DNA of 7,139 nucleotides from a virus (lineage: Duplodnaviria > Heunggongvirae > Uroviricota > Caudoviricetes): IMG/VR virus record IMGVR_UViG_2541047945_000012. One strand, 5' to 3'. The translations under genes and the position numbers were made by a program. Of this stretch, positions 1,289-7,139 are shown in pieces. The notes under the pieces were generated by a model that ran no database searches, was not told where the DNA came from, and saw only the letters and a program-made list of their open reading frames with translations. Position 1 is the first letter of the stretch, and each line of letters opens with the position of its first letter.

Positions 1289-1771
1289 CTATCTGGTCAG
1301 GGTGTCGTATTGTTTTTCGCAGACTCTTCCGGCTTCGGCTGCCCGGTCAGCATACTCTGCCAGTTGTCTGTTTCTCTCGAGAGATTTGCTGAGCACGTCG
1401 GCAAGCAAAACTCCGGTGTCTGCGGCTGACGTCCCAGCGCCGACAATGGCGTTATACTGCCTGAGCTGCTCACGGATGGCAAAGAGTTGTTGCTGCAACC
1501 GGCCAGCGCGAGCGGCAGCATCAAGAGCATCATTGCGCGCCTGGTCGATCCTCTGCTGCGCTTCACGTTCATTGATCGATTTCTCCTGTTCGTAGTGCTG
1601 ACGAACTATCTCATCTTCAGCTTTGCGGTCTTCCTTCGCCTGCGCATACCCGGCATCGTACTGACGACTGCCGTGTGCATTCCAGGCTACAACTCCTGAT
1701 ATGACCAGAACAGCAAGCATCGCCATGATAACCAACTGTTTCCAGTATGCTTTTGCGAATGCCCAGATCAT
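1289..1771 (-). CDS. Rz-like i-spanin (inner-membrane spanin subunit)
   Basis: ATG at 1771..1769 overlaps the endolysin stop (ATGA, 1768-1771); SD AGGTG 8 nt upstream; TAG at 1291..1289; 160 aa. N-terminal TM ([21 protein letters not shown]) followed by a charged, Gln/Arg/Glu/Ala-rich predicted coiled coil and a C-terminal Cys. Classic position after the endolysin. Confidence 0.85.
1297..1572 (-). CDS. Rz1-like o-spanin (outer-membrane lipoprotein), fully embedded in the +1 frame of Rz
   Basis: ATG at 1572..1570 with SD AGGAGA 9 nt upstream; 91 aa. Signal peptide [26 protein letters not shown] with lipobox LAGC. Mature part about 65 aa, Pro-rich (8 Pro) with two Cys. Stops 8 nt before the Rz stop. 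Confidence 0.8.
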   Translation of the reverse strand: MNVKRSRGSTRRAMMLLMLPLALAGCSNNSLPSVSSSGSITPLSALGRQPQTPEFCLPTCSANLSRETDNWQSMLTGQPKPEESAKNNTTP

Positions 1772-2397
1772 ACCGCCAGCACCTTACTGGCAGTTATGTA
1801 TCGCGCGCGCCGGTCATCAATGCCGTTCCGGCCACCATTGATAAGCAGAGTTACACGTGCAATATCTCCGGTATACTTCATGCAGCCTTTGCTGGAGAAG
1901 AACCACGCCGCGCTACGAGCCGCGTATTCGTCCTGCGCCAGCAGTTCAGGACTCTCCAGCAGGTCAACCTTAAGACCGTTTCCACAGTCACGATAGTTAT
2001 TCAAACCGGTAATCTGGATAAGTCCGCGCCCACGGTAGTTCCAGCCGTCACCAGGGGCATTGTTCCCCATGCGTTTGCTGTACACCAGATTGGCGATCGC
2101 TCGCTGGCGCTCGAGTGGCAATGGTGGCTCACCAGCACGTCGCCCCAGTGCATTAGCCTGCCCCTGAGTGAGACGCCCAGCCCGAACGAAGTTAGCCAGT
2201 CCGCTGACGCTGTAGTTGAAATTCTCCTGCAACCGGGTGAAGCCCACAGACTCATGCCCGACCTGAGCAATAAACATTGCCAGATCTTCTGGTTTGCTGA
2301 TACCAAACTCTTTCATCGCAGAAGTTATATGCGAGAACCAGCGTGCGGCCAGCGCCTCGCTAATACCAGCAGCTCGCTGGAATTGTTTAATCTCCAT
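1768..2397 (-). CDS. Endolysin, glycoside hydrolase family 19 (chitinase-fold lysozyme), cytoplasmic (no signal or SAR segment)
   Basis: ATG at 2397..2395 with SD GAGG 8 nt upstream; TGA at 1770..1768; 209 aa ([13 protein letters not shown]...). The ORF-track start at 2562 is an upstream extension without an RBS. Contains GH19-type catalytic motifs [10 protein letters not shown] and GRGLIQITG (compare plant chitinase HETG and RGPIQ(I/L)S motifs, from memory). Confidence 0.85.
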
Positions 2398-2695
2398 GTT
2401 TAGACCTCGATATTTTGAAAATCTGAACAACGTTACCGCGTGTTTTAATAACCGCGGCAAGCATGACAGCGTTGATAATGACCTCAGATAAATCCACAGC
2501 CATTGGCGTGCGTAACCAGATTGCATAAGCGACACGAACTGGAATGCTGGCCGCAGCAACAATCAGGAAATAAGCAAGCCACCCACCCCATCGCCTGTGT
2601 TGAGAACCGTTTCTCCGAAATGTGGCAACTCGAACTGCTATACCGGCGCAAATAACCGCATTGGTGATAAGCAAAAAAAGCTCATGAGTTACCAT
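2387..2695 (-). CDS. Small membrane protein between holin and endolysin (2-3 TM; candidate antiholin, second holin or lysis regulator)
   Basis: ATG at 2695..2693 with SD GGGGAG 8 nt upstream; TAA at 2389..2387; 102 aa. Overlaps the holin 3' end by 14 bp and the endolysin start by 11 bp, suggesting translational coupling. TM1 [16 protein letters not shown], a highly basic loop ([15 protein letters not shown]), TM2 [22 protein letters not shown], and a possible short third hydrophobic segment. Confidence 0.7.
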
Positions 2696-3086
2696 CGTCT
2701 TTTCTCCCCGGAATTAACTCGCGTGGATTATCGGAACGGTGATAGAGCCAGATCCCAATTCGCACAGCGACGATTGCTGACACAAATGCACCGGCAGAGA
2801 AAACAATCCCTTTCTCGAAAGAATCCTGTGTGATTGTAGGGATCAGGCTGGCTATGCCGATAAGAATTGATGCTGCTGGTTTGTAGAATAGAAGTCCGCA
2901 GAGAAAGCTAAGCATCGACAAGAGCACGCGACGACGAATGGGATACTCTACCGCAGAGGTAACAAAAATCACCGCCCCAGCCAAAGACCCCAAAGCAACC
3001 TCAGGAGGAACTCCTGCTATCACTGCCGCCAAAGAACTCATGCTAAGCCACTGATTTAAAGTTTCACTGGTTAGTTGAGCTGACAT
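2682..3086 (-). CDS. Holin, class-I-like (three TM segments, charged C-terminal tail)
   Basis: ATG at 3086..3084 (MSAQLTSETLNQW...), preceded by GGTGG with a 5-nt spacer; an in-frame GTG at 3095 is the ORF-track start. TGA at 2684..2682; about 134 aa. Three hydrophobic segments (LAAVIAGVPPEVALGSLAGAVIFV; VLLSMLSFLCGLLFY...ILIGIASLI; IVFSAGAFVSAIVAVRIGIWLY) and a charged tail [19 protein letters not shown]. First gene of the lysis cluster. Confidence 0.75.
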   Translation of the reverse strand: MSAQLTSETLNQWLSMSSLAAVIAGVPPEVALGSLAGAVIFVTSAVEYPIRRRVLLSMLSFLCGLLFYKPAASILIGIASLIPTITQDSFEKGIVFSAGAFVSAIVAVRIGIWLYHRSDNPRELIPGRKDDGNS

Positions 3087-3143
3087 GTTTTCCACCGTTT
3101 ATATGCATAACTACCTCCTGAACAGTAAAGCATTACGCATGAT

Positions 3144-3159
3144 AAACCATTTATGGTTT
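3144..3159. promoter_or_regulatory. Perfect 16-bp palindrome AAACCAT-TT-ATGGTTT just downstream of the putative promoter (candidate operator or 5'-UTR hairpin)
   Basis: 7-bp arms are exact reverse complements with a 2-bp centre. Starts about 12 bp downstream of the -10 hexamer, so it overlaps the predicted transcription start region of the lysis operon. Confidence 0.45.
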
Positions 3160-3170
3160 TTTGTTACCCA

Positions 3171-3199
3171 ATATTACCAATCCAATTCGCGATGGTCAA
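3171..3199 (-). promoter_or_regulatory. Candidate sigma70 promoter for the lysis operon: TTGACC - 17 nt - TAATAT, with TGn extended -10
   Basis: On the minus strand, -35 TTGACC (3199..3194), 17-nt spacer, -10 TAATAT (3176..3171) preceded by TGG. AT-rich upstream. Predicted start near 3164, about 78 nt upstream of the holin ATG. Confidence 0.45.
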
Positions 3200-3451
3200 A
3201 ACATATCCACAGCGGTAAGTTTGAGTGTTTTCATTTCCAAAACTTTATACAATAATATATGCAGTCTGTTATTTTTACGCACAATAAAAACACGATACCA
3301 GCTATTTCGCCATAAATACAATTTCCTTTAATGCTGCCAACAGTGCCTGCAAAACATATAACAGAACACATAAATAACAGGCATAATATAGATTTAATAA
3401 TCCAAGTGCATATAAATATCATTTAAGAAGTTAAGATCATTATTATAATAA

Positions 3452-3483
3452 CAATAACCCCGCTGTTTTATTCGGGGTTATTG
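3452..3483. terminator. Hairpin terminator downstream of the tail fibre gene
   Basis: Stem AACCCCG (3456-3462) / CGGGGTT (3473-3479), extendable to 11 bp, with a 10-nt loop. On the minus strand it is followed by a U-rich tract (TTATTATAATA). It begins 10 bp after the tail fibre stop (3493-3495). Confidence 0.5.
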
Positions 3484-3492
3484 CATTTATTA

Positions 3493-4029
3493 TTACATTG
3501 ACATTAATATAAACATGGCTAATTCGTCATAACGAATTCCGTAGCGTCCTCCTGCTTTTTTTACAAGAATCATATCTCCTGTTTTATATTGAGAATAAAT
3601 TTTCTCACCTGTATCAGGATCTGTGCTCTCTTCAGTTATCACCTCTTCATCCCATACGTCAGGCCATTCATCGTAACACCAAAAAGCATATTGCTCAGGG
3701 TTTAAACCATGCTTTCTAAGAATATCCCCTACGGTTTGAGCGCCAACGCCAAAATGATACCTGGACGACTCAATTCCTTTGTGATTAATTGAGTCATTAA
3801 ATTTAAATTTATAGATGACTGACTTTATTTCAATAGCGGCATCACGCTCTGCATTAAGAATATCATATCTTGTTTTAAGAGTTTCATCTGACGTATTGAT
3901 TGACCCGGTTCCTGCATAGATAACAGAGCATCTGTTTGATGGCTGTCCAATAGCTTTAACATTATCATCAACAGGAGCTATTTTATTAGCATCTGCCAAC
4001 CACCAGTCTGTTCCATCAGCGTGACCGAT
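3493..4029 (-). pseudogene. Tail fibre/tailspike gene, C-terminal fragment (distal to the IS2 insertion) including an intramolecular-chaperone-like domain
   Basis: In frame with fragment 5361-6914 once IS2 and one copy of the 5-bp duplication are removed. TAA at 3495..3493. Encodes ...GHADGTDWWLADANKIAPVDD...SINTSDETLKTRYDIL...GGRYGIRYDELAMFILMSM. The first 9 codons of ORF-track entry 3493..4056 are IS2-derived. Confidence 0.8.
4025..4029. repeat. IS2 target-site duplication, copy 1 (CCGAT)
   Basis: ccgat immediately flanks the IS2 end at 4030; identical to 5361-5365. Confidence 0.85.
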
Positions 4030-4040
4030 TGGATTTGCCC

Positions 4041-4946
4041 CTATATTTCCAGACATCTGTTATCACTTAACCCATTACAAGCCCGCTGCCGCAGATATTC
4101 CCGTGGCGAGCGATAACCCAGCGCACTATGCGGATGCCATTCGTTATAATGCTCGAACGCCTCTGCAAGGTTCTTTGCTGCCGTTAACCCGTCTGGTTTG
4201 GGCATGATACTGATGTAGTCACGCTTTATCGTTTTCACGAAGCTCTCTGCTATTCCGTTACTCTCCGGACTCCGCACCGCCGTGTTCTTCGGTTCAAGTC
4301 CCAACATCCGGGCGAACTGGCGTGTTTCATTAGCCCGGTAGCATGAACCATTATCCGTCAGCCACTCCACTGGAGACGACGGAAGATCGTTGCCGAAGCG
4401 GCGTTCCACCGCTCCCAGCATGACGTCCTGTACTGTTTCACTGTTGAAGCCGCCGGTAGTGACCGCCCAGTGCAGTGCCTCACGATCACAGCAGTCCAGC
4501 GCGAACGTGACACGCAGTCTCTCTCCGTTATCACAGCAGAACTCGAACCCGTCAGAGCACCATCGCTGATTGCTTTCTTTCACGGCCACTCTGCCTGTAT
4601 GTGCCCGTTTCGATGGCGGTACAGCAGGTTTTCGCTCAAGCAACAGCGCATTCTGGCGCATGATCCGGTAAACACGTTTGGCATTGATCGCAGGCATACC
4701 ATCAAGTTCTGCCTGTCTGCGAAGCAGCGCCCATACCCGACGATAACCATACGTTGGCAGCTCTCCGATAACATGGTGTATACGGAGAAGCACATCCGTA
4801 TCATCAGTGTGACGACTGCGGCGGCCATCCATCCAGTCATCGGTTCGTCTGAGAATGACGTGCAACTGCGCACGCGACACCCGGAGACAACGGCTGACTA
4901 AGCTTACTCCCCATCCCCGGGCAATAAGGGCGCGTGCGCTATCCAC
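4041..4946 (-). CDS. insD: IS2 transposase OrfB (InsD; DDE catalytic domain), normally made as an OrfAB fusion by -1 frameshift
   Basis: 301-aa [37 protein letters not shown]...[11 protein letters not shown], recognised as IS2 InsD. Overlaps insC in the -1 frame at the A6G site. Confidence 0.9.
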
Positions 4947-5269
4947 TTTTTTGCCCGTCCATATTCAACGGCTTCTTTGAGGAGTTCATTTTCCATCGTT
5001 TTCTTGCCGAGCAGGCGCTGGAGTTCTTTAATCTGCTTCATGGCGGCAGCAAGTTCAGAGGCAGGAACAACCTGTTCTCCGGCGGCGACAGCAGTAAGAC
5101 TTCCTTCCTGGTATTGCTTACGCCAGAGAAATAACTGGCTGGCTGCTACACCATGTTGCCGGGCAACGAGGGAGACCGTCATCCCCGGTTCAAAGCTCTG
5201 CTGAACAATTGCGATCTTTTCCTGTGTGGTACGCCGTCTGCGTTTCTCCGGCCCTAAGACATCAATCAT
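4904..5269 (-). CDS. insC: IS2 OrfA (InsC; helix-turn-helix DNA-binding/regulatory protein)
   Basis: ATG at 5269..5267 with SD GGAG 5 nt upstream; 121 aa [41 protein letters not shown]... The ORF-track start at 5314 is an upstream extension. Confidence 0.9.
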
Positions 5270-5360
5270 CTGTTCTCCAATGACTAGTCTAAAAACTAGT
5301 ATTAAGACTATCACTTATTTAAGTGATATTGGTTGTCTGGAGATTCAGGGGGCCAGTCTA

Positions 5361-5365
5361 CCGAT
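5361..5365. repeat. IS2 target-site duplication, copy 2 (CCGAT)
   Basis: ccgat immediately after the IS2 end at 5360; identical to 4025-4029. Confidence 0.85.
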
Positions 5366-6914
5366 TCTTACTCTTATCCCACTTCTAATATTTAAACTTC
5401 CAGTATTACTCTGTAAATTACAATCTCCTGAAGTTGGTCCAAGCAGTACAGTTTTACCAACACCACATACTACTCTGGCATTTCCTTTTTGTGATACGAG
5501 TCTTGACTCACCTCCTGACTGCTCAGGAAGAGATTTATGGTCTACAAATGCATCGCGGGGGTTAAATACACCGTCTCCAGAATTATATCTTCCTCCTGTA
5601 TAGTTGTTAAATACAGGACCCCAGTCAACGCCATTGCCTTCAGAGCACCCGACCATTCTAAGCACTCGAGTATTCCCTGCTGCATATGGTAATGAGCTTG
5701 TTGATTGCCTGGAAGCTATCATACGTGCTCCATAACCAATAGCATTACCACCATTTATAGTTACATATGCTGGCTGGCTTTCGAAATATGTACTGTAAAA
5801 GTTCATATTTCCACAGTCATGTAGATGAATAAGAACATCATCCCATCCCTGAATGGTTCCTGCATGTACCTGTACACCGCGAACTGGTTCCCCTGAAACC
5901 TCCATACACTCTGATGGCCGGCTGAATGGCTGAGACAGGTATTGCGATGTGGCAAGCAGATGTGTGTGGTGATACAGGCTGGTAATGTAGCAATCGAAAA
6001 ATTGCGTTCCCGCCATACCAAAGTTATCTATGTCATTTCGCCGTATAGTAGAACCTACTGTTGCCTCAGAAGCGTTAGACACTCCAGTAAATACTAACTT
6101 ATCACCGGATACGGATAATCCTGAATAAGTGAAATTCCTGCCTCCCGATCTTAAAACCCCGGACGTTTCGAAGGTGTGGCTTGATGACCATGGGATTTCG
6201 ATAGTGCTGGACGTTACCGCTGTAATTCGGAATACATCATGGGCGCGGATCGAAACACCCTTGAATCCCTGGAATCTACAGTGATAATAGTTTTCATCCT
6301 CGCCCTGAGCGGCCAGCGTGCCAGATACAGGAATGTTCGTTTTTAAAAGTGCCGTCTTGCGCCAGTATCCAACCACCTGCAAATTGCGGTATTCATTGCC
6401 AAAAGACGCACGTGACCAAATACCTACATCCCACTCATCGCCAAGACCGGTATTTGCAATGTCTTTATAACCATCCAGCCCATTGAAATATGGAACAATA
6501 CGAAAGTTCTCAAGGCGAACACATCCTGTCTCTGGCATCAATATTGCGGCAGAGAATGGTTTAAGCGTGGCTCTTGTAGCCCCATTAGCATCACCGTTAG
6601 TAAAATCCAATAAATCATATGATGACGCAGGTGCCGTTGTTGTATACGGGTCTTCGGAAGATGGATTAGAAACCACACCACCACTAACATCCATATTAGA
6701 AACACAATCTACAGTATATTTTTTATTTCCTACACCGTACATCAGGAATGTGGTCCCTGTGGTAATATCAGGAGCAAATGTTGCAGTATATCCAGAGACC
6801 CATTTGCCCACACCAAGACCAATTATCCCACCACCAGAAACAGGTGTTAACGTATCCGTTATTACATACGCATTATCAGTACCATAAATAACCTTTCCTG
6901 TGTTAATGGCAGCT
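5361..6914 (-). pseudogene. Tail fibre/tailspike gene, central fragment between the IS3-family element and IS2; 5' end missing
   Basis: Open frame of about 517 codons running from the IS3-family terminus (6915) to the IS2 terminus. Gly/Ser/Thr/Asn/Tyr-rich, as in receptor-binding fibre or spike bodies. No credible start codon or RBS inside the fragment, so the N-terminal part must lie beyond the IS element. Codons 1-61 of the 584-aa ORF-track entry are out-of-frame readthrough of the IS transposase. Confidence 0.7.
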
Positions 6915-7139
6915 TGAACCGCCCCGGGTTTCCTGGAGAGTATTTTATCTGTGAACTCAGGCTGCCAGATCATCGTTTCCGATGGAAGCATAATAAGCTT
7001 TTTCTGCTTCTGCCGGAGGAGTATGGCCCAGCCTTTCCAGCAATCGTCGATTGTTATACCAGTCCACCCACGTGAGTGTGGCCAGTTCCACTTCTGCACG
7101 GTTTTTCCAGCTCTTACGGTGTATTACCTCCGCTTTGTA
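6915..7139 (-). mobile_element. IS3-family insertion sequence (IS629/IS1203-like), partial; right end only, continuing beyond the window
   Basis: Terminal sequence on the plus strand from 6915: TGAACCGCCCCGGGTTTCCTGGAGAGTATTTTATCTGTGAACTCAGG, the TG...-type IS3-family end that I recall for IS629. It is followed by the transposase OrfB C-terminus. Exact IS identity not verified. Confidence 0.7.
6957..7139 (-). CDS. IS3-family transposase OrfB, C-terminal 60 codons (5'-truncated by window edge)
   Basis: Minus-strand translation ...YKAEVIHRKSWKNRAEVELATLTWVDWYNNRRLLERLGHTPPAEAEKAYYASIGNDDLAA-stop, with TGA at 6959..6957. This is a typical C-terminal tail of an IS3-family DDE transposase. Confidence 0.75.
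   Translation of the reverse strand, partial: YKAEVIHRKSWKNRAEVELATLTWVDWYNNRRLLERLGHTPPAEAEKAYYASIGNDDLAA

Follow-up and report, generated by a model that had tools for sequence, protein, structure and literature searches.

The window, by which we mean the whole 7,139-nt stretch of DNA analysed here (IMG/VR record IMGVR_UViG_2541047945_000012), is the end of an epsilon15/phiV10-like (Uetakevirus) prophage remnant adjoining yfgH–yfgI of Escherichia coli. On its minus strand it carries a lysis cassette that runs from a PF16931 gene through a PF05449 gene and a GH19 endolysin gene to Rz, with Rz1 embedded in the latter, as is also annotated in phiV10 and epsilon15. The cassette is intact although the prophage around it is riddled with insertion sequences. 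Its features are the following.

2682–3086, minus strand: gene for a 134-aa membrane protein; PF16931 (Phage_holin_8), E = 1.5e-11; PHROG 198 "holin", E = 2.3e-41
2387–2695, minus strand: gene for a 102-aa membrane protein, from ATG 2695–2693 to TAA 2389–2387, 102 codons
1768–2397, minus strand: GH19 endolysin of the SPN1S/epsilon15 type; Pfam Glyco_hydro_19, PHROG 181 endolysin
1289–1771, minus strand: Rz-like i-spanin (DUF2514); Pfam E = 1.5e-42, PHROG 312
1297–1572, minus strand: Rz1-like o-spanin in the +1 frame inside Rz; PHROG 11621, E = 1.6e-40; lipobox LALAGC
1112–1139, no strand: perfect 12-bp hairpin between yfgI and Rz, with an A-run on one side and a T-run on the other, found by a terminator scan

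From its sequence, the hairpin at 1112–1139 is likely a bidirectional terminator that closes both the lysis operon and yfgI. Window position 1162 is the last with similarity to phiV10, which therefore places the junction between prophage and host at about 1140–1161.

Beyond the cassette, an IS2-type insertion sequence occupies positions 4031–5359 (minus strand; an HTH_Tnp_1 ORF at 5269–4904 and an rve ORF at 4946–4041) and splits the tailspike gene into segments at 5360–7099 and 3493–4030. E. coli EC21Z-151 has an uninterrupted tailspike gene of 2,976 nt, and the insertion junction shows a duplication of a few bases. Homology to intact prophages ends at 6916, and a further IS3-family transposase (rve_2/rve_3) has its C-terminal end encoded at positions 6957–7139 (minus strand). 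The loss of homology past 6916 together with this transposase end therefore indicates that the 5′ end of the tailspike gene has also been replaced and that the prophage is a remnant. Between tailspike and lysis cassette lies an AT-rich spacer (3100–3600, GC content 0.29–0.33) with sigma-70-like promoter matches on the minus strand at 3199–3139. The spacer also holds an unannotated hydrophobic ORF of 63 aa (3422–3231, minus strand), with no match in Pfam, PHROG or NCBIfam; the equivalent slot is filled by O-antigen conversion genes in epsilon15 and by oac in phiV10.

The 102-aa gene and its family

An initial annotation of this DNA, made from the letters alone, had singled out a 102-aa ORF at 2387–2695, its strand unstated, and had proposed that it possesses its own Shine–Dalgarno sequence and overlaps both neighbours, with 14 nt shared with the upstream gene and 11 nt with that of the endolysin. 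The start and stop positions bear this out. The ORF lies on the minus strand, with GGGGAG ending 8 nt before the ATG at 2695; the TGA of the 134-aa gene (2684–2682) falls 14 nt into it, and the endolysin ATG (2397–2395) precedes its end by 11 nt, overlaps that agree with coupled translation on either side. What does not stand is the description of the protein as "extra", because the same arrangement is standard in epsilon15/phiV10-like phages, epsilon15 and phiV10 included.

Comparison with phiV10 and epsilon15 yielded dN/dS values of 0.07–0.11 in the ORF's own frame and of 1.5–6.7 in the other two frames. Confining the comparison to the part that overlaps neither neighbour gave 0.065–0.10. 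Because dN/dS is low in frame and high in both other frames, the ORF is more than a product of chance: it is a real gene under strong purifying selection. Conservation, which the initial annotation had proposed as a check, holds across 91 homologues of 54–97% identity, every one of which matches PF05449. These close homologues are spread across the Enterobacterales, with hosts in Escherichia, Salmonella, Klebsiella, Citrobacter, Cronobacter, Hafnia and Pectobacterium. That the ORF might be a frame artefact, or a non-lysis moron merely residing inside the cassette, is very improbable: only the shortness of the ORF and the way it overlaps the gene on either side would speak for this, and against it stand the dN/dS contrast between frames, the family-level HMM match, 211 cluster representatives and a conserved position in the lysis cassettes of unrelated phages, which together refute either reading.

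The family was at first thought impossible to assign by eye, and profile searches against holin and antiholin families and DUF1327 were suggested. The HMM search assigns it with confidence. The protein matches PF05449 (Phage_holin_3_7, formerly DUF754) at E = 5.2e-27 and 94.1 bits, far above the curated cut-off of 25.4 bits and over profile positions 2–80 of 80, and also matches PHROG 217 "holin" (E = 8.9e-35); DUF1327 proved irrelevant to it. The 102-aa gene is thus an already known and annotated member of a named family of putative holins, in a standard cassette. NCBIfam contains no model for either the 102-aa or the 134-aa protein, and no relatives of either were found in the PDB.

Hydropathy analysis identifies three hydrophobic segments in the 102-aa protein, at approximately residues 5–24, 39–60 and 71–83, the last of them short (13 hydrophobic residues). 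An AlphaFold2 model likewise comprises three helices (3–25, 33–61 and 69–98), at a low confidence (pLDDT 60, pTM 0.32) that makes it too weak for a fold search. Both results accord with the two transmembrane segments and possible third that had been noted initially; some annotators predict only two transmembrane domains (PMC5247547). The loop after the first segment, [14 protein letters not shown], is as unusually basic as had been remarked, its 14 residues including 4 Arg and 1 His rather than the "6 Arg/His in 15" first counted, a figure of six being reached only if R22 is included. Lys and Arg residues cluster in this loop (+4) and in the C-terminal tail (+5), and by the positive-inside rule the protein is therefore predicted to adopt an N-out/C-in topology with three transmembrane domains and a basic cytoplasmic loop. 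In an alignment of 15 diverse PF05449 members (A1), G87 and N88 do not vary, and conservation of R22 is at least 90%; the invariant G-N pair follows the third segment in the basic C-terminal tail and forms part of an RGN motif in nearly all members. The protein shares the traits of PF05449 members at large, namely a length of about 90–110 aa, three hydrophobic helices, a basic loop after the first of them and RGN after the third.

A two-gene module upstream of soluble endolysins

The 134-aa protein encoded directly upstream also has three hydrophobic segments and a holin-like look, and its first segment contains an invariant GxxxGA motif (G33, G37 and A38; alignment A2). Its gene starts at ATG 3086, as annotated in epsilon15, phiV10 and by PGAP. 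We considered GTG 3095 as a lambda-like dual start and rejected it, as it lies inside the Shine–Dalgarno sequence and would add only Met-Glu-Asn. Paralogy of the 102-aa and 134-aa proteins was also rejected (hhalign probability 3%).

Using HMMs built from our own alignments, we counted the loci in which a PF16931-type gene lies directly upstream of a PF05449-type gene. The pair was present in all 22 phage and prophage loci, in 77 of 80 IMG/VR loci (the three exceptions are contig ends) and in all five distant 50%-cluster representatives with usable context; loci gathered with narrower alignments were mostly near-identical to one another. Selection from the PF16931 side, in different bacterial species, returned the pair in 72 of 72 informative loci, a sample biased to one PF16931 motif subfamily. 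Overall, PF16931 sits directly upstream of PF05449 and abuts it in about 176 informative loci, among them those of epsilon15-like, P2-like, N4-like and lambdoid phages and of 72 bacterial species. PF16931 and PF05449 constitute a fixed two-gene module with near-obligate pairing. The distance from the stop of the first gene to the start of the second ranges from −1 to +14 nt (17 loci measured). In the window the PF16931 gene is immediately upstream, on the same strand and overlapping by 14 nt, and the cassette contains a soluble endolysin and spanins. The same pair is found in Ralstonia RSA1, Pseudomonas D3 and CF136b, Klebsiella Pylas and Soft, Salmonella SP-076 and TR2, coliphage mEp390, Pectobacterium MA11, a Shewanella P2-like phage, Actinobacillus pPE4, Yersinia vB_YpM_41, Citrobacter Chris1 and Enterobacter EcP1.

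The partners also diverge together, as their pairwise identities correlate (Pearson 0.83). Identity between PF05449 proteins does not track that of the gene downstream (Spearman 0.06); in mEp390, for instance, the endolysin is 73% identical to that of the window and the pair only 30–33%.

Two loci depart from the usual arrangement. A rearranged lambdoid prophage (L109, 2563–4220; GCA_034107185.1) is the only locus with PF16931 but without PF05449: the 3′ end of its mEp390-like PF16931 gene is rearranged and is followed by a gene for a 215-aa transmembrane protein with no family match and then by a Peptidase_M15_4 endolysin gene. In a P2-like prophage (L102, 3001–4077; Logan SRR23617210), PF05449 is fused in frame to a PG_binding_1 and Muramidase endolysin (358 aa, P0340), and an extra 135-aa gene with weak likeness to PF16931 lies between the partners, PF16931 itself being still present. 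This fusion could tether the endolysin to the membrane, or it could reflect the loss of a stop codon.

A fusion of a different kind joins the two partners themselves. Protein P0194 (232 aa, 21 member sequences) unites the 134-aa and 102-aa ORFs at [12 protein letters not shown] through a change inside the G/A-rich 14-nt overlap; its origin may lie in a sequencing indel or in a natural frameshift. Such a fusion would be topologically awkward if both proteins are N-out/C-in.

At least five unrelated endolysin families follow the pair: GH19, Muramidase with or without PG_binding_1, GH24, GH108 and L-Ala-D-Glu peptidase. The GH19 endolysin of the window has neither a SAR nor a signal sequence, with a maximum 17-residue hydropathy of 0.62 in its first 50 aa. 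All 14 endolysins examined beside such pairs similarly lack an N-terminal hydrophobic segment (maximum 17-residue hydropathy no higher than 1.16, compared with 2.38 for the SAR control, N4 gp61). Besides the spanins, these cassettes encode no membrane proteins other than the pair. Release of a soluble endolysin calls for a canonical large-hole holin, as the lambda and P2 systems illustrate. Since the endolysins are soluble and the pair alone remains once the spanins are set aside, holin function would reside in the pair, and PF16931/PF05449 is accordingly predicted from sequence to supply large holes. A pinholin of the S21 type works with a SAR endolysin, its holes being too small to let a soluble one through, and neither the window nor the other 14 endolysins provide a SAR endolysin, so that a pinholin-like system is unlikely here. 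The initial annotation had suggested an antiholin, a pinholin-like holin or a lysis-timing regulator; to class the protein among the membrane proteins of lysis cassettes, as a holin, antiholin or regulator, remains apt, and the pinholin-like option is the part that we set aside.

Two Pseudomonas aeruginosa siphophages, D3 (L006, 1377–2291) and CF136b (L020, 1413–2712), have no endolysin gene after the pair. Small ORFs without assignment follow it in D3, and a PhageMetallopep protein follows it in CF136b. The pair can therefore be uncoupled from a muralytic gene.

Proposed division of labour between the partners

Database labels disagree on which partner is the holin. RefSeq names the 102-aa orthologue of epsilon15 and phiV10 "holin" and the 134-aa orthologue "membrane protein", whereas PGAP uses "phage holin family protein" for the 102-aa and "putative holin" for the 134-aa protein. 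The upstream partner is a putative antiholin in the record of Klebsiella phage Pylas and, by prediction, in Burkholderia P2-like phages (PMC3091744, PMC5247547). All of these labels are predictions, and they conflict with one another. Because RefSeq, PGAP and other records assign the roles differently, labelling by role is arbitrary, and this applies equally to the initial annotation, which had called the upstream 134-aa gene the holin when epsilon15 and phiV10 give that name to the 102-aa gene. In the searchable literature we found no experimental test of any PF05449/DUF754 or PF16931 member; holins of epsilon15, phiV10 and SPN1S appear there as predictions or transcript measurements only, and a paper on phage ZX5 measured "holin" transcripts only.

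We propose that both proteins would be products of the late lysis transcript and would enter the inner membrane, where each probably has three transmembrane domains in an N-out/C-in orientation. The pair would then time and form large, non-specific holes through which the soluble GH19 endolysin is released, after which Rz and Rz1 would disrupt the outer membrane. As to who does what, our best guess is that the 102-aa protein would be a hole-forming holin of the class I type, and that the 134-aa protein would bind it in the membrane and set the timing as an antiholin or co-holin. We advance this assignment tentatively, giving it slightly less than an even chance. It draws on the size of the 102-aa protein (about 100 aa), its three helices, its charged first loop and C-terminal tail, the invariant RGN motif after its third segment, and the overlap of its gene with the endolysin gene immediately downstream. 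These are classical features of class I holins such as lambda S105 and P2 Y. Hydropathy and charge agree with class I topology; the short third segment, the AlphaFold2 pLDDT of 60 and predictions of only two transmembrane domains fit it less well. Against the 102-aa protein as the pore former, the 134-aa protein too has three hydrophobic segments, together with its invariant GxxxGA and a tighter dN/dS.

The tightness of the pairing itself suggests another candidate arrangement, an obligate heteromeric two-component holin in which neither protein alone would form holes, comparable to gp24.1/gp26 of Bacillus phage SPP1. The two families co-occur almost absolutely, in both directions and across virus families, hosts and endolysin types; their gene order is fixed, the stop/start overlap favours coupled translation, and the partners diverge in a correlated manner. 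The P2-like prophage L102 retains a PF05449 domain even when this is fused to the endolysin, with PF16931 still present. However, strict linkage is equally expected for a holin and a tightly co-adapted antiholin; the lambda dual-start motif is equally conserved. Furthermore, the analogous gp63/gp62 of N4, which belong to different families, are a pinholin and a non-essential regulator (PMC12642591). Mutual linkage above that usual for dispensable antiholins keeps a heteromeric holin plausible, and we consider it rather unlikely. If true, it would mean that a two-subunit hole machine is widespread in Gram-negative phages with at least four virion types, departing from the textbook scheme of one holin and an optional antiholin in that neither subunit would be lytic alone.

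A reversal of the roles, with the 134-aa PF16931 protein forming the hole and the 102-aa PF05449 protein acting as antiholin or timing regulator, is implied by the labels of the initial annotation and strikes us as distinctly unlikely. PF16931 is itself named a putative phage holin and matches PHROG 198 "holin", and its invariant GxxxGA is a helix-packing motif; packing of this type is typical of oligomerizing channel helices such as TMD2 of the pinholin S21. The 134-aa protein is also under stronger constraint (dN/dS 0.04–0.05, compared with 0.07–0.11), and the sole locus without the pair, L109, keeps PF16931 and lacks PF05449, although this is a single and visibly rearranged prophage. In evolution, dedicated antiholins (P2 LysA and T4 RI, for example) are dispensable, yet PF05449 is never missing in the roughly 176 informative loci, which argues against its being one. 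Most curated annotations also run the opposite way (epsilon15, phiV10, Burkholderia KS5, KS14, KL3 and AP3, and Pylas), as predictions only (PMC3091744; PMC5247547). We therefore retain the 102-aa protein as the tentative holin and the 134-aa protein as its regulator.

For the window, these results are of small consequence, as they concern a routinely annotated gene in the standard epsilon15-type cassette of a decayed prophage. The more general point is modest but real: two Pfam families of "putative holins" are in practice one inseparable two-gene module, which epsilon15-like, P2-like, N4-like and lambdoid phages combine with at least five unrelated kinds of soluble endolysin. Its database labels are contradictory (holin, antiholin, membrane protein); thousands of annotations would be corrected once the hole-forming partner is established.

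Comparison with named systems

The closest counterparts of the window's cassette are those of epsilon15 and phiV10. The 102-aa proteins epsilon15 gp24 (NP_848232), phiV10 gp28 (YP_512282) and the SPN1S orthologue are 82–85% identical to the window protein, and epsilon15 and phiV10 have the same five genes in the same order with identical 14-nt and 11-nt overlaps. They differ from the window by sequence drift only, the window copy lying in an IS-riddled remnant beside yfgH–yfgI.

At a greater distance, phiCTX orf9/orf10 and Ralstonia RSA1 ORF12/13 also consist of PF16931 followed by PF05449, with −1 to +4 nt between them, upstream of endolysin and spanins. In contrast to the window, these are myoviruses with a Muramidase and PG_binding_1 endolysin instead of GH19, and the identity is about 26–40%. 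The validated P. aeruginosa holin Hol (PA0614) may be a relative of phiCTX orf9 and PF16931, or may instead be a member of PF16085, and AlpB/AlpC may be another pair of the PF16931/PF05449 type; a homologue search listed close relatives only, and our scan of bacterial genomes for PF16931-type loci returned no P. aeruginosa locus, so that our reading draws on neither. If AlpB/AlpC are such a pair, the phenotypes published for delta-alpB (PMC8131026) would inform the role of PF16931. Burkholderia KS5 gp35/gp34 are described as "putative antiholin + holin", a comparison in which the DUF754 member alone was checked, from the literature (PMC3091744).

Among the classical systems, lambda S105/S107 and P2 Y resemble the predicted form of the 102-aa protein in having about 100 aa, three transmembrane domains in an N-out/C-in topology, a basic C-terminal tail and a gene placed just before that of the endolysin. 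P2 LysA, an antiholin encoded by a separate gene, invites the further comparison that the pair too has a membrane partner that could regulate timing. These likenesses do not extend to homology. P2 Y belongs to a different family (PF04550), and homology of the pair to P2 Y or LysA was rejected, with hhalign probabilities of 0.1% for A1 against Y, the validated class I holin, and 0.4% for A2 against LysA. The dual-start motif of lambda S is absent from the 102-aa gene. Furthermore, in P2 the endolysin gene lies between Y and lysA, and lysA is non-essential, whereas the PF16931 partner is always adjacent and almost never absent.

The best-studied analogue of the two-gene arrangement in a Gram-negative phage is gp63/gp62 of N4, shown experimentally to be a pinholin and a lysis regulator, respectively (PMC12642591). 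Like PF16931/PF05449, gp63 and gp62 are small membrane proteins that occur together and are encoded side by side upstream of an endolysin. They differ in family, gp62 falling in DUF7940 and gp63 matching no family, and in the lysis that they serve, N4 combining a SAR endolysin with pinholes where the PF16931/PF05449 pair accompanies soluble endolysins. Other N4-like phages (Pylas, SP-076 and TR2) carry the PF16931/PF05449 pair instead of gp63/gp62.
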